Assembly: GCA_963753065.1 (NCBI GenBank)
Contig: CAVWAQ010000002.1
Span: 145,863-209,862, forward strand
Direction of reading: 5' to 3'
Length of the DNA stretch: 64,000 nt
Source: Candidatus Bathyarchaeota archaeon
GTDB taxonomy: Archaea; Thermoproteota; Bathyarchaeia; 40CM-2-53-6
Shown here one piece after another: positions 1,340-9,390 of this stretch. A program made the translations under genes and the position numbers. The notes under the pieces were generated by a model. That model was not told the origin of the DNA and ran no database searches. It was given only the letters and a program-made list of their open reading frames with translations. How positions within the stretch are numbered: the stretch's first letter is position 1; every line of letters starts with the position of its first letter.

Positions 1340-2224
1340 TCAGAGAAGCGCCCTGTCAATGACCATGCTGAGGAACAGCAGGAAGAGATAGGGACTGGAC
1401 ACCTTAAAGGCCCGATAGGCGTTGCCTCGAGTTGGCCTGACGAATAGGTAGAGATTCACCAACAAGACGACAACCCCGAGAACAAGGGCAGACGCAGCGT
1501 AGATCCAGCCAAATCCCCCTTCCAAATAGACAGCCAATGAGAAGGGAATCATCAGAATCACAGTCGCCACAATACATCGCAGGGCCGCCTTCTCTTCCAT
1601 CACGACTGGAAGCATCGGTACACCTGCGCGAGCATAATCCTCCTTGCTGAGAATGGCTAGACTCCAAATGTGGCTGGGGATCCATAGGACCACTAGCCCA
1701 GCAAGCAGGACCGGCAGAAGACCAATTGTGCCAGTGACCGTGCTCCATCCGAACATCGCTGGCAATCCTCCGCTGAAACCGCCCAAGACTATGTTGAGTG
1801 GGTTTCTCCTTTTCAGCAAGAGGCTGTAGACGACGACGTTATCGAGAACGCCAAGCAGCAGAATCACGAAAGATATGATATTGATCCATAGGCCCAGCAC
1901 AAGGCCTACTGCGATCAAGAACAGGCCCCATCCCAGTGCGCGCTGTGGAGGGGCGATGCGGCCAGTGGGAATTGGTCTGTGACTCGTCCGGTGCATGATG
2001 GCATCGATGTCCCTGTCGATGTAGCATGTTACCGTGTTGCATCCGGCTGTTGAGGTCGTGATCGCGATCAAGCCTGCCAGTATCGGGAGCAGTGCGAACC
2101 ACTTTTGTGAGAGCGCCGAGATCGCCATCGCCGCGACAGATGTGAACACAAGGAGCGCGACGGTCTTAGGTTTCGTTACTTCAATGTAGTCTCTTAGAGT
2201 GAGAAGAAGCGTCATCACGATCAC
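1340..2224 (-). CDS. UbiA-family prenyltransferase, most like protoheme IX farnesyltransferase (heme O synthase)
   Basis: Polytopic membrane protein with the UbiA signature YIDRDIDAIMHRTSHRPIPTGRI (D-rich motif followed by RT..RP). Confidence 0.65.
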   Translation of the reverse strand: MIVMTLLLTLRDYIEVTKPKTVALLVFTSVAAMAISALSQKWFALLPILAGLIAITTSTAGCNTVTCYIDRDIDAIMHRTSHRPIPTGRIAPPQRALGWGLFLIAVGLVLGLWINIISFVILLLGVLDNVVVYSLLLKRRNPLNIVLGGFSGGLPAMFGWSTVTGTIGLLPVLLAGLVVLWIPSHIWSLAILSKEDYARAGVPMLPVVMEEKAALRCIVATVILMIPFSLAVYLEGGFGWIYAASALVLGVVVLLVNLYLFVRPTRGNAYRAFKVSSPYLFLLFLSMVIDRALL

Positions 2225-6779: not shown

Positions 6780-7465
6780 GCGTCACAGAATCAGTCATTC
6801 AGAGCTCAACTCGAACTGTCTTTCGAGGAAGAGCAGTGTGCTTGATCTCAGGAGGCATGGACTCCCCTGTCGCTCTCTGGCTGACAATGAAGGCTGGCAT
6901 GGCTCCAATCGCTGTCTTCTTCGACAGCTACCCGCTGGCAGACAGAAGAGGCAGAGAGATCGCTCTGCTCAGCATCAAAAAGGTGCGGGACTACTTGGGT
7001 GCTCCTCCGATCAAAACGTACGTCGTCGGGCACTCTCCAGACCTGTCAGAGATCGTTTCCTCCTGCCAGCGGAACTTGGCGTGCGTGATCTCGAGACGAA
7101 TGATGTTCAGAGTCGCGAGCGAGATCGCGCACAGGGAGATGGCGGACTGCATAGTCGCAGGAGATGTCGTGGGACAGAAAGCCAGCCAGACACTGCACAA
7201 CCTGTTTGTGACAGATGCGACCACAGATGGGCTTCCCATCATCAGACCTCTTGTCGGCATGAACAAGGACGAAATCGAACGACTCGCTAAGACTATCGGG
7301 ACGTTCGAACTCTCAACAAGCCCCGGCGTAGCAGCTTGCGGCATCCCGACACGCAAGCCTAGGACGCACTCTCGATCTGAAGAGATAGCGAAGTCCGAGA
7401 CGTACCTAGATCTGGATCATATGGTTTCACGTGCGCTCGAGAACGCGCAGATCGTGGACGCATAG
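6776..7465 (+). CDS. PP-loop ATPase resembling the C-terminal catalytic domain of tRNA sulfurtransferase ThiI (mini-ThiI with no THUMP or rhodanese domain)
   Basis: SGGMDSPVA PP-loop, a GDVVGQKASQTL motif and a conserved Cys in CGIPTRKP (as in ThiI CTIFTP). Translationally coupled to the upstream E1-like gene. Confidence 0.7.
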   Translation: MSVTESVIQSSTRTVFRGRAVCLISGGMDSPVALWLTMKAGMAPIAVFFDSYPLADRRGREIALLSIKKVRDYLGAPPIKTYVVGHSPDLSEIVSSCQRNLACVISRRMMFRVASEIAHREMADCIVAGDVVGQKASQTLHNLFVTDATTDGLPIIRPLVGMNKDEIERLAKTIGTFELSTSPGVAACGIPTRKPRTHSRSEEIAKSETYLDLDHMVSRALENAQIVDA

Positions 7466-7793: not shown

Positions 7794-7907
7794 TGATCAA
7801 ACAAAAAGCTGATGCCCCATGTCAGCAGAAATCGCAGCGTTAGTTCTCATTCTTGGTTCAATAGACTTATACGGCAAGAATCGAAGTTTCGGTTGCCGGG
7901 GGAAGAC

Positions 7908-8009
7908 GCCGGGGTCGGTCAGATGTGATGCGACCACCGAAGGCCGAACGGTTCAGGCGGCAGCCTGCAGAGCTGCAGTATATGGGTTCGACTCCCATCC
8001 CCGGCTCCA
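7908..8009 (+). tRNA. tRNA-Cys (anticodon GCA) with a 26-nt intron between positions 9 and 10
   Basis: 5' exon GCCGGGG-TC, intron about 7917-7942 (GGTCAGATGTGATGCGACCACCGAAG), then D arm GCCG/AACGGTTC/AGGC. Anticodon arm is GCAGC-CTGCAGA-GCTGC, variable loop AGTAT and T arm ATGGG-TTCGACT-CCCAT. The acceptor 3' strand CCCCGGC gives a perfect 7-bp stem with the 5' strand, followed by discriminator U73 (the Cys identity element) and an encoded CCA. The spliced length would be 76 nt. A second copy of GCCGGGG lies 13 nt upstream (7895-7901). Confidence 0.6.
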
Positions 8010-9082: not shown

Positions 9083-9193
9083 TGGCGGGCGGGGCAGGAT
9101 TCGAACCCGCGACTCCAGGCTCCGGAGGCCTGTGCCCTATCCTGGCTAGGCGTCGGGAGAAACTACGCAGTCTATACCCGCCCATACCCGCCC
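9083..9193 (-). tRNA. tRNA-Arg (anticodon CCG) with a 23-nt intron between positions 9 and 10; the upper coordinate includes an upstream duplicate of the acceptor segment
   Basis: Read on the minus strand: acceptor GGGCGGG-TA (9183..9175), intron about 9174..9152 (TAGACTGCGTAGTTTCTCCCGAC), D arm GCCT/AGCCAGGATA/GGGC with A14, G18G19, A20 and A21. Anticodon arm is CAGGC-CTCCGGA-GCCTG and T arm GCGGG-TTCGAAT-CCTGC. The acceptor 3' strand CCCGCCC is followed by G73 and an encoded CCA ending at 9083. The spliced length would be 78 nt. A second GGGCGGGTAT copy lies immediately 5' (9193..9184). Confidence 0.65.
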
Positions 9194-9390
9194 GACATTG
9201 CAGCCAATAGCAAGCGAGAGCACATCATTTCTCCAGCCTGCGATCGCAGGCAGATACTTTCGTGAAAGATACTTAAGTTACGTCATTGACCAATCAGCCG
9301 AGTCGACATTCTCAGTGTCTCCCCAAATCTATTCAACAAGTTACATCTGTACAATGCCCATCCATACGCGGTGACTCGGCGGAAGCACAA

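Follow-up and report, generated by a model that had tools for sequence, protein, structure and literature searches.

A tRNA-Cys(GCA) gene in a Candidatus Bathyarchaeota archaeon (contig CAVWAQ010000002.1) raises the question of how a tRNA matures when its 5′ acceptor strand is cut off from the D stem by a short insert and stands in duplicate. A tRNA-Arg(CCG) gene in the same 64,000-nt stretch of DNA (the window) poses the same question. We consider both loci to be colinear, functional tRNA genes, each with one short archaeal BHB-type intron that would be spliced out in vivo, and the upstream copy to be a surrogate partner of the 3′ acceptor strand. We give this joint reading, the best explanation of the two loci, a probability of about 55%.

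The tRNA-Cys gene lies at positions 7908–8009 of the plus strand and has one short intron between acceptor stem and D stem. Its 3′ part is that of an ordinary tRNA-Cys, as the initial annotation had claimed, and each part was confirmed in place: the D arm (starting at 7943), the anticodon arm (7960–7976, GCA at 7967–7969), the T arm (7982–7998), the 3′ acceptor strand CCCCGGC (7999–8005), U73 (8006) and an encoded CCA (8007–8009), all on the plus strand. The Rfam tRNA model recognizes this core with 36.5 bits, covering positions 9–63 only (7942–7998). The 5′ acceptor strand GCCGGGG (7908–7914), followed by TC, opens exon 1 (positions 1–8, GCCGGGGU, 7908–7915), which is invariant in 15/15 genes; a 26-nt intron (7916–7941) and exon 2 (positions 9–76, D arm to CCA, 7942–8009) follow. 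The second GCCGGGG reported earlier is present at 7895–7901, 13 nt 5′ of the first, and is separated from it by a variable A-rich spacer (GAAGAC, 7902–7907) that is 4–6 nt long and differs in sequence between relatives.

The tRNA-Arg(CCG) gene (9183–9083, minus strand) likewise has one short intron between acceptor stem and D stem. It reads, in order, GGGCGGG, TAT, GGGCGGGTA, a 23-nt insert and GCCTAGCC, and the earlier statement that it shares the tRNA-Cys architecture holds for both the copy of its own acceptor strand and the insert. Exon 1 (positions 1–9, GGGCGGGUA, 9175–9183; entropy 0.00) is followed by the intron (9152–9174) and by exon 2 (positions 10–76, 9083–9151), with the CCG anticodon, G73 and an encoded CCA; Rfam matches positions 10–63 only (9151–9094, minus strand, 33.1 bits). 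A leader block, CGGGCGGG (9187–9194, minus strand), comprises the 5′ acceptor strand copy and C(−1), and the spacer TAT (9184–9186, minus strand) lies between it and exon 1. In both genes, then, a second copy of the gene's own 7-nt 5′ acceptor strand sits 3–6 nt upstream.

ARAGORN finds no tRNA in the unspliced window, and run on the window together with about 120 related loci it reports uninterrupted genes only. Rfam at E-values up to 5 yields no further tRNA fragments, no other RNA families and no intron family in the window. Once the inserts are removed in silico, ARAGORN reports a tRNA-Cys(GCA) of 76 nt and a tRNA-Arg(CCG) of 78 nt, excision restoring the canonical cloverleaf in both, and chooses the downstream GCCGGGG as the tRNA-Cys 5′ end. 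The gene-finder check recommended in the initial annotation therefore fails on unspliced DNA and succeeds on the spliced sequences, and the earlier view of the loci as intron-containing genes, not fragments, agrees with these cloverleaves.

The relatives compared include ArgRS homologues and 33 genome loci of Bathyarchaeia/Bathyarchaeota. Counted over the related genomes, the layout occurs in 19 Arg and 15 Cys genes that differ from one another, a part of them belonging to distant Bathyarchaeia. A scan of 938 kb for genes with their own 5′ acceptor strand twice within 20 nt returned these two families only. Judged by sequence comparison, the recurrence is far beyond chance, and the suspicion that a lineage feature was involved is borne out lineage-wide. 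Among the distant tRNA-Cys genes are ones with three introns.

It is barely credible on this evidence that we are dealing with decaying pseudogenes, or with gene fragments that a mobile element left behind on integrating, and that neither locus is expressed as a tRNA. Such events do touch the family: tRNA-Cys serves as an integration target in relatives, two loci (L034 and L075) keeping just its last 29 nt beside foreign DNA and a third (L116) carrying an integrase gene immediately 3′ of it. Pseudogenes also occur at related loci (L044/45 for Cys and, probably, L046/47 for Arg); the L046/47 tRNA-Arg has changes at A10, G14 and C54, which are universally conserved tRNA positions, and is therefore probably a pseudogene. 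Against decay of the window genes stand exons that are near-invariant across many lineages (0.00–0.12 bits), compensatory T-stem changes (20 Arg precursors), inserts that retain BHB geometry, spliced products that ARAGORN recognizes as canonical tRNAs and the lack of any other tRNA-Arg(CCG) or tRNA-Cys copy in the loci examined. We scanned viral contigs for the 3′ end of tRNA-Cys, which could serve as an att site, and found no match.

The BHB motif consists of a central 4-bp helix and two 3-nt bulges on opposite strands, with the splice sites within the bulges (PMC7714728). The tRNA-Arg junction has exactly this form (hBHBh′): C4–G7 pair with CCCG as the central helix, and the two opposite-strand bulges are U8 A9/N and A Y/G10, the slash marking the cut. 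The exon-side helix comprises G1–U13, G2–C12 and G3–C11; the intron-side helix is 3–7 bp long and covaries, as do all 5/5 counted pairs of the intron hairpin. Across 20 precursors pairing holds in 96.6% of cells, and every change in the central helix preserves the pair, bar one G·A; the L023 precursor has 3/4 central pairs and a G·A mismatch. Our enumerator, whose strict class demands a 4-bp helix, 3-nt bulges and outer helices of at least 3 bp, places a strict BHB at this junction in 7/8 precursors scanned. The junction is fixed at 9/10, because 55 distinct uninterrupted tRNA-Arg(CCG) genes, located beside argS in relatives, read GGGCGGGTA directly followed by GCCTAGCC, which the 5′ end and junction of the spliced tRNA-Arg match.

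The tRNA-Cys intron had been described as 26 nt long at position 9/10. Its length is 26 nt in either register, and 9/10 is correct for tRNA-Arg, but in tRNA-Cys a near-canonical BHB can be drawn only at 8/9. The 26-nt stretch first proposed, GGTCAGATGTGATGCGACCACCGAAG (7917–7942), contains the GGTC/GACC hairpin pointed out before, which is real and covaries (7917–7920/7932–7935, 4–8 bp). Over the 15 Cys sequences 98.5% of cells are paired. This alternative 9/10 register would end exon 1 at 7916, and the predicted spliced junctions would be GCCGGGGU/GGCCGAACGG (8/9) and GCCGGGGUC/GCCGAACGG (9/10). The enumerator gives no BHB candidate for 9/10 and, in 7/7 precursors scanned, a BHB of 3 bp plus a G·A mismatch for 8/9. 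The central helix in that register is C3–G5 with CCG, plus G6·A, and the bulges are G7 U8/C and A A/G9, with Y after U8 across precursors; both cuts fall two nt 3′ of the central helix. The exon-side helix is only 2 bp long (G1–C11, C2–G10); outer helices of at least two Watson–Crick pairs on each side are found in both tRNAs. G7942 is position 9 of the Rfam tRNA model, in agreement with 8/9. We therefore rank 8/9 with a near-canonical BHB as the most likely position under these models; ViennaRNA and RNAalifold favor another local pairing (ViennaRNA in 4/5 sequences), and the G·A variant would fit the "relaxed" class that TACK-type enzymes accept (PMC7714728). The search for BHB motifs suggested in the initial annotation thus returns a strict one at tRNA-Arg 9/10, a near-canonical candidate at tRNA-Cys 8/9 and none at tRNA-Cys 9/10. 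A 24-nt register (7917–7940) is BHB-like but was rejected, as it would leave four nt between acceptor and D stems. The ThiI-anchored loci L120–L124 contain no tRNA-Cys, and no uninterrupted tRNA-Cys was obtained.

Two other classes of interrupted tRNA gene were rejected. Each gene has all its parts in colinear order on a single strand, in a span of about 115 nt, which excludes split or permuted genes. Self-splicing group I and group II introns of tRNAs are hundreds of nucleotides long, have a conserved core and usually occupy the anticodon loop; the inserts here are only 23 and 26 nt. Bathyarchaeota belong to the TACK archaea, in which the (αβ)2 splicing endonuclease, an enzyme with a broad substrate range, predominates (PMC7714728). 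Noncanonical BHB tRNA introns are known from TACK lineages, namely Thermoproteales and Thaumarchaeota (Marck and Grosjean 2003; Sugahara et al. 2008; PMC4090602, PMC8450103). The Bathyarchaeia introns resemble these in being short, located outside 37/38, BHB-defined and predicted substrates of a broad-specificity splicing endonuclease; they are also clade-specific, with uninterrupted genes in relatives, and several can occur in one tRNA. Intron positions reviewed previously are 3/4, 20/21, 22/23, 25/26, 29/30, 30/31, 45/46, 53/54, 56/57, 59/60 "etc." (PMC4090602, PMC8450103); 8/9 and 9/10 are not among the positions given in those non-exhaustive lists, and our literature search on introns at 8/9 or 9/10 and on tRNA introns of Bathyarchaeia found nothing specific. 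We assign the introns to the noncanonical archaeal tRNA kind, which is already known. The leader element is apparently undescribed, as we found no account in the literature of an intron that comes with a conserved acceptor-strand copy in the leader.

Nothing in the leader is better conserved than the copy, and its occurrence goes strictly with this intron position. Column entropy of the tRNA-Cys copy, identical in 15/15 distinct Cys genes, is 0.00 bits versus 1.35 in the 8 nt upstream and 0.80 in the spacer; that of the tRNA-Arg block is 0.11 bits versus 1.21 and 1.31 in its flanks, and the Arg spacer occurs as TAT, CTT, TTT, TAA, TCT, TCC, CCT, CAT, GTT or GCCTA. A copy matching in at least six of seven positions precedes 19/19 interrupted Arg genes and 0/55 uninterrupted ones. 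The association can be seen within a single contig (CAZYOZ010000002), where the tRNA-Arg (L020) is uninterrupted and has no copy and the tRNA-Cys (L119) is interrupted at 8/9 and has one. The conserved Arg block is C(−1)G1′–G6′, which fits pairing with C67–G73, discriminator included, better than it fits a plain duplicate of positions 1–7.

The box CTTATAC (7866–7872, plus strand), an A/T-rich predicted TATA-like element, is probably the tRNA-Cys promoter; AATAGACTTATACGG is kept in 8/8 close Cys loci. TTATAC ends 22 nt short of the leader copy. Among 48 uninterrupted tRNA-Arg genes from relatives, the distance between the end of the equivalent box and the mature 5′ end is 21–31 nt, with 39/48 within 21–27 nt and a mode of 24. 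This spacing places the tRNA-Cys leader copy at the transcript start, and transcription would begin upstream of the copy.

We think it unlikely that the introns are genuine BHB introns and the leader copy a functionless scar of a tandem 5′-end duplication or of recombination with a mobile element, although several observations could be read in this way. The copy in tRNA-Cys lies at the distance from the promoter where ordinary genes have their mature 5′ end, the duplication in the window subclade is a perfect 10-nt tandem repeat (GGGCGGGTAT twice), and the leader of L022/L023, GGGCGGAGCCTA/G, resembles tRNA positions 1–6 and then 10–14, like a decayed 5′-end duplicate. A neutral copy should, however, decay like its flanks, whereas the copies (0.00–0.11 versus 0.8–1.35 bits) are as conserved as the exons, and this across lineages whose ThiI and ArgRS are just 45–50% identical. 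The sole truncated leader copy, that of the L046/L047 tRNA-Arg, sits in the probable pseudogene. A scar origin is compatible with later functional use. Copies of tRNA sequence at att sites usually comprise tens of nucleotides of the 3′ part and lie beyond an integrated element, and we rejected such a duplication as the origin of the leader copy, which is 7 nt of the 5′ strand at a distance of 3–6 nt with no intervening element. The 29-nt 3′ ends beside foreign DNA in L034 and L075 are a true example of such a duplication. In the tRNA-Thr(GGU) of Caldiarchaeum subterraneum, intron gain is tied to a duplicated 5′ fragment of the same tRNA via a mobile element (Sugahara et al. 2012, PMC3293823), a parallel that fits the leader copy having arisen as a by-product of intron gain. 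The Caldiarchaeum fragment, though, lies at a distance of 1.8 kb or >500 kb, is linked to an element that carries a recombinase and was read as debris (PMC3293823); the Bathyarchaeia copy is 7 nt long, 3–6 nt upstream, inside the predicted transcript and conserved across deep divergence.

We favor a function for the copy, namely that of a built-in surrogate acceptor strand: the leader copy of positions 1–7 would pair with the 3′ strand and so free exon 1 for the splice-site motif. We advance this specific mechanism tentatively, at slightly less than even odds. The BHB would be built from nucleotides 1–7 of exon 1, which form its central helix with the 3′ end of the intron and its outer helix with the start of exon 2; a precursor can therefore adopt either the splice-competent fold or the acceptor stem, not both. 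As long as exon 1 is engaged in the BHB, the leader copy would occupy the 3′ acceptor strand, maintaining a helix like that of acceptor stem and T arm. The archaeal splicing endonuclease would then cut in both 3-nt bulges and an RNA ligase join the exons, after which the acceptor stem would exchange the leader copy for exon 1, and copy and spacer would be trimmed off by RNase P, in this presumed order. The strand would thus be a cis-acting RNA folding device that permits protein-spliced introns at the junction of acceptor and D stems, and would have evolved or been retained in two tRNAs, anciently in Cys and later, in two separate clades, in Arg.

Folding calculations are consistent with this arrangement. 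RNAalifold pairs the tRNA-Cys leader copy with 7999–8005 and C(−1)–G6′ of tRNA-Arg with C67–G73, and in both tRNAs it pairs exon 1 with the end of the intron and the start of exon 2. When the leader is absent, 11/13 sequences have exon 1 in the acceptor stem with P ≥0.85, and a forced BHB carries a penalty of +7 to +15.5 kcal/mol; once the native leader is present, the probability of exon 1 being in the acceptor stem is 0.00 in 13/13, and the forced BHB costs −8 to +8 kcal/mol, an energy gain that is a near-automatic result of supplying a 7-bp complement. ViennaRNA rarely predicts the BHB itself (central-helix P ≤0.18 for tRNA-Arg), and in the minimum-free-energy fold of tRNA-Arg both copies are tandem-paired with the 3′ region and the T arm is broken. 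Neither acceptor stem varies in any of the sequences, and the helix of leader copy and 3′ strand accordingly shows no covariation; we infer the pairing from conservation, association and thermodynamics. In sequences spliced in silico the leader copy beats exon 1 for the 3′ strand (P 0.11–0.99 versus 0.00–0.02), so maturation needs tertiary structure or RNase P to shift the equilibrium.

The hold of the copy on the 3′ strand after splicing could also suit a regulator or timer that delays splicing or RNase P cleavage, or enforces the order of processing, through pairing with the 3′ acceptor strand or with the 3′ end of the intron (UCGGG with CCCGA in Arg). Almost every Arg sequence allows U(−2)C(−1)GGG of the leader to pair with CCCGA at the 3′ splice site; U(−2) hardly varies, and the Arg leader has further conserved structure. 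A timer is nevertheless unlikely to be the explanation: tRNA-Cys has no equivalent pairing of leader and intron, the trait shared by the two tRNAs is a copy complementary to the 3′ acceptor strand, and nothing condition-dependent is evident. A 6-bp helix of the window tRNA-Cys, UUCGGU:ACCGAA, which would join the end of the intron to sequence preceding the first copy, was discarded, as it is not conserved in relatives.

According to the enumerator the Arg leader copy also forms a BHB-like motif with the same 3′ splice site, and by this model it could compete with splicing rather than aid it. The motif bears on whether the copies are alternative 5′ splice donors, the upstream copy acting as exon 1 and giving the tRNA or a variant directly, which seems to us very improbable. 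The Arg copy does make a 4-bp central helix and 3-bp outer helices there, and where UA follows it (the window subclade and L040/L041) the product would be identical to the proper tRNA. In 11/19 Arg genes, however, the copy is followed not by UA but by CU, UU, UC, CC, CA, GU or GC, four Arg genes have GGGCGGA, and the intron-side helix is three wobble-rich pairs; in tRNA-Cys the copy is followed by G, A or C instead of U8, and no BHB can be drawn. The first copy was rejected as the true exon 1, since it is not followed by a conserved U8 and A9/G9. A second BHB cutting at the 5′ end was dismissed on inspection, the bulge polarity being wrong relative to the helix strands.

The proposed surrogate strand recalls the split (trans-spliced) tRNAs of Nanoarchaeum equitans and Caldivirga, and permuted tRNAs, in which base pairs made by leader and trailer enable processing by the endonuclease (PMC4090602, PMC4033280), in that flanking sequence would join the pairing that enables processing. 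There the tRNA is encoded in separate or permuted pieces, and the BHB arises from pairing between the flanks. The Bathyarchaeia genes, by contrast, are colinear and contiguous. Their BHB is drawn from the two exons and the intron, and the role we propose for the leader element is pairing with the 3′ acceptor strand, not a share in the BHB.

Archaeal introns removed by the endonuclease are thought free to sit wherever a BHB can form, and we know of no explanation so far of how a precursor folds into the BHB against a strong competing helix of the mature tRNA. The present loci suggest one solution to this competition, a leader that holds a spare of the strand to be displaced. If true, this would be a general rule for BHB introns that invade regions base-paired in the mature tRNA. 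The comparative data also reveal that, in a single archaeal class, one tRNA has repeatedly gained and lost introns at many positions. Bathyarchaeia are abundant in sediments and peat and, to our knowledge, have barely been studied at the RNA level. Standard tRNA finders miss genes of this type, ARAGORN reporting none and Rfam the core only, and the tRNA complements of Bathyarchaeia genomes will consequently be under-counted; tRNA-Cys and tRNA-Arg(CCG) may appear missing.

The tRNA-Arg leader has additional elements. The A/T-rich box CTTAAGTATC (9268–9277, minus strand), the sole TATA-like element upstream of tRNA-Arg, is kept in all window-clade loci and has a variant, TTTTAAGTAT, in L022 and L023. 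As a promoter it would imply about 50 nt of leader before the Arg leader copy; it could serve the divergent argS instead. A short ORF (ATG to TAG, reaching the exon/intron border) was rejected, as it is not kept in L005 and L007. A helix of a GCUCGC box with the leader copy, given by RNAalifold for the isolated Arg leader, was also rejected, an internal leader hairpin replacing it in the full precursor. RNAalifold predicts a hairpin, CTGCCTGCGATCGCAGGCTGG, at 9233–9253 (minus strand), whose stem shows CG-to-UA covariation among 12 leaders.

Read directly from the sequence, the tRNA-Cys core (7942–8009, plus strand) comprises the D arm, the anticodon arm (GCA), the variable loop (5 nt), the T arm, the 3' acceptor strand CCCCGGC, U73, and CCA. 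Between its 5' acceptor strand GCCGGGG (7908–7914, plus strand) and the D stem are TC and a further 26 nt, and a second GCCGGGG, here called the leader copy, lies upstream on the same strand (7895–7901). Core, insert, and second GCCGGGG are present as described in the initial annotation, as is the same architecture in tRNA-Arg(CCG) on the minus strand, which reads GGGCGGG, TAT, GGGCGGGTA, a 23-nt insert, and GCCTAGCC (core match 9151–9094). ARAGORN reported no tRNA across the 64-kb window, and matches to the Rfam tRNA model were limited to model positions 9–63 for Cys (7942–7998, 36.5 bits) and 10–63 for Arg (9151–9094, minus strand, 33.1 bits); a permissive Rfam search of the window returned nothing beyond these two cores. 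Neighboring genes encode a nicotinate phosphoribosyltransferase, a Fer4_5 protein, ThiF, a short ThiI-domain protein, and an arginyl-tRNA synthetase (ArgRS) divergent from the tRNA-Arg gene, and two neighboring ORFs are without Pfam matches. Both ArgRS homologs and the titles carried by 33 genome contigs place the window in the Bathyarchaeia.

Related loci (L-numbers) were collected around ArgRS homologs, 33 from genomes and 80 from metagenomes. Where ArgRS is ∼50% identical, an uninterrupted tRNA-Arg(CCG) detected by ARAGORN occupies the same place. Because these genes (55 distinct sequences) join GGGCGGGTA directly to GCCTAGCC, the Arg intron is fixed between tRNA positions 9 and 10 (9/10), bearing out the position first suggested for this architecture. 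The interrupted form is found in every locus with ArgRS 74–98% identical and in two deeper loci (L022 and L023), amounting to 19 distinct sequences and one apparent pseudogene (L046/L047) that has A10, G14, and C54 and whose leader copy is truncated (GTCGGGAT). In a neighbor-joining tree of ArgRS the window clade is monophyletic and L022 and L023 fall in a separate basal clade; hence the Arg architecture either is old and has since undergone losses or has arisen or spread on more than one occasion. In the sister lineage of L022/L023 the position directly upstream of argS is taken by another tRNA-Arg(CCG), uninterrupted, codirectional with argS, and with the acceptor strand GGGCTCG (L021, 35–113; L024, 3806–3884), so the locus has undergone changes in both gene order and tRNA identity. 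In other Bathyarchaeia the same tRNA-Arg next to argS has introns in the D loop (L082, L084, and L086), the T loop (L009, L027, L032, L092, L095, L100, L102, and L107), or the anticodon loop (L016). The leader copy is absent from all of these genes, which belong to a lineage rich in noncanonical introns.

Among close relatives, tRNA-Cys has the same architecture in eight distinct sequences. Anchoring on the neighboring ThiI-domain gene extended the comparison to genomes with ThiI just 45–50% identical, yielding seven further distinct tRNA-Cys sequences at the same locus (L114, L116, L117, L118/119, L125/126, L127, and L128). All seven have the leader copy and an intron probably between positions 8 and 9 (8/9), so that the Cys architecture is old within the class, and all have two extra introns, at 37/38 and between the variable loop and T stem. 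These three-intron genes (in L114, ∼7090–7260) were undetected by ARAGORN and by Rfam at the gathering threshold; removal of all three segments leaves a 76-nt tRNA-Cys. It is very improbable that the loci under study are pseudogenes. One contig carries both an uninterrupted tRNA-Arg without leader copy (L020) and an interrupted tRNA-Cys with one (L119), showing that within a single genome the leader copy accompanies the interrupted gene only. Recurrence in close and distant tRNA-Cys and in tRNA-Arg upholds the earlier suggestion of a lineage-specific feature rather than chance, and the feature is lineage-wide.

The archaeal splicing endonuclease recognizes the bulge-helix-bulge motif (BHB), canonically a 4-bp helix with a 3-nt bulge on either side and cuts within the bulges, whose outer helices require at least two Watson–Crick pairs (PMC7714728). 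In tRNA-Arg, the central helix pairs exon-1 nucleotides C4–G7 with CCCG at the 3' end of the intron, U8 A9|N and A Y|G10 form the bulges, the helix on the exon side comprises G1-U13, G2-C12, and G3-C11, and the intron-side helix is a hairpin. Of eight Arg precursors scanned with a purpose-written enumerator, seven contain this strict BHB, and in the eighth, L023, a G.A mismatch interrupts the central helix. Across an alignment of 20 Arg sequences 96.6% of cells are paired, with compensatory changes at all five hairpin pairs, only one-sided pair-preserving changes in the central helix (save the G.A of L023), and a freely variable third nucleotide in the 5' bulge. For tRNA-Cys, the Arg rule of a cut two nucleotides 3' of each central-helix strand works only in the 8/9 register. 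There, C3–G5 pair with CCG next to a mismatched G6.A, G7 U8|Y and A A|G9 make up the bulges, G1-C11 and C2-G10 constitute the helix on the exon side, and the intron hairpin has 4–8 bp. This register places the intron at 7916–7941 and makes G7942 position 9, consistent with the Rfam alignment; a purine is usual at this position in tRNAs. Splicing in silico in either register gives a 76-nt tRNA accepted by ARAGORN, and conservation does not separate the two. For tRNA-Cys the enumerator obtained no BHB motif at 9/10. The intron proposed for tRNA-Cys is retained, with 8/9 a more likely position than the original 9/10.

The leader copy is the most conserved leader segment in both tRNAs. Its column entropy in Arg is 0.11 bits, versus 1.21 upstream, 1.31 in the spacer, and 0.00–0.12 in the exons; in Cys it is 0.00 bits, versus 1.35 upstream and 0.80 in the spacer. 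Within 30 nt upstream, 19/19 interrupted and 0/55 uninterrupted Arg genes repeat their own 5' acceptor strand with a match of at least 6/7, and a generic scan of 938 kb of collected sequence for the duplicated-acceptor-strand signature returned these two gene families alone. A nonfunctional duplication scar has real support as the origin of the copy, the leaders of L022 and L023 resembling a decayed copy of positions 1–14, but leaves exon-like conservation over deep divergence unexplained, and we consider it unlikely as a full account. The conserved Arg block CGGGCGG extends from C(-1) to G6' of the leader copy, with position 7' varying (G or A), and is complementary to C67–G73, discriminator base included.

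A BHB at 8/9 or 9/10 is incompatible with the acceptor stem because the motif uses up exon-1 nucleotides 1–7. ViennaRNA folding without the leader placed exon 1 in the acceptor stem with P ≥ 0.85 in 11 of 13 sequences, and forcing the BHB cost +7 to +15.5 kcal/mol. Once the native leader was included, exon 1 was never in the acceptor stem and the cost fell to a range of −8 to +8 kcal/mol, an energy gain that is a near-automatic consequence of adding a complement. In both tRNAs, unconstrained RNAalifold paired the leader copy to the acceptor stem's 3' strand and had exon 1 pair with the end of the intron and the beginning of exon 2; since both acceptor stems are invariant, the leader-copy helix is without covariation. 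From these models and the incompatibility of the two structures, we propose that the leader copy acts as a surrogate acceptor strand: by occupying the 3' strand it would preserve an acceptor/T-arm-like helix while exon 1 builds the splice-site motif, and after splicing exon 1 would take its place and the leader would be cleaved off by RNase P. The leader copy still outcompetes exon 1 for the 3' strand after in silico splicing, so the last step would depend on tertiary structure or RNase P. The two copies might instead be alternative 5' splice donors, in that, for Arg, the enumerator could also build a weaker BHB-like motif from the leader copy and the 3' site used by exon 1; we regard this alternative as improbable. 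The BHB is seldom the predicted optimum. In the optimal Arg fold both 5' copies lie in tandem on the C-rich 3' region and the T arm is broken, because in the window clade the T-stem 3' strand with C66 C67 (CCUGCCC; 9083–9100, minus strand) is also complementary to GGGCGGG. This complementarity is absent in L022, L023, and uninterrupted Arg genes and is probably a coincidence of compensatory T-stem change.

Every Cys gene has an A/T-rich box (CTTATAC or TTTATTAG) whose end lies 22–25 nt ahead of the leader copy. Of 48 uninterrupted Arg genes that possess such a box, 39 have it ending 21–27 nt ahead of the mature 5' end and the remaining nine 31 nt ahead. This spacing predicts that the leader copy is transcribed, and we infer from sequence that the boxes are the promoters of both tRNAs. 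The only A/T-rich box of tRNA-Arg (CTTAAGTATC; 9277–9268, minus strand) lies ∼80 nt upstream of the leader copy, implying a longer, structured leader. A regulatory or timing role for the leader copy is likewise considered unlikely. The segment between this sole TATA-like box and the Arg leader copy (9195–9277, minus strand) is conserved in the clade and contains a hairpin with covarying pairs; a GCUCGC box within it is complementary to GGGCGGG via wobble pairs and is paired inside the leader hairpin when the full precursor is folded.

TACK archaea are well known to carry noncanonical BHB introns, among them introns in the D arm, in the T arm, and at 3/4 in the acceptor stem (PMC4090602; PMC12397907; PMC8450103), so the introns themselves are new members of an established kind. 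An incomplete literature search turned up no mention of tRNA introns at 8/9 or 9/10, nor of any leader in which a copy of the displaced strand is conserved; the leader copy is a new, testable variant feature. The nearest analogies are split tRNAs, whose flanking sequences pair to build the motif, and the Caldiarchaeum tRNA-Thr locus, where a duplicated 5' fragment accompanies the gain of an intron (PMC3293823).

Incomplete tRNA-Cys sequences also occur in related loci. In L044/L045 an exon-2-like sequence with a GCG anticodon and a broken T stem, without exon 1, looks like a pseudogene. Two strains with ArgRS 97–98% identical to that of the window retain only the last 29 nt of tRNA-Cys, from T loop to CCA (L034, 2093–2121; L075, 280–308), preceded by unrelated DNA that in L034 encodes an Mrr-type restriction endonuclease domain (1551–2000, minus strand). 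The remnant looks like an att-type partial duplicate from an inserted island whose other end is off the contig. A phage-integrase-family gene directly downstream of tRNA-Cys on a distant Bathyarchaeia contig (L116, 3870–5057) again marks this tRNA as an integration hotspot.
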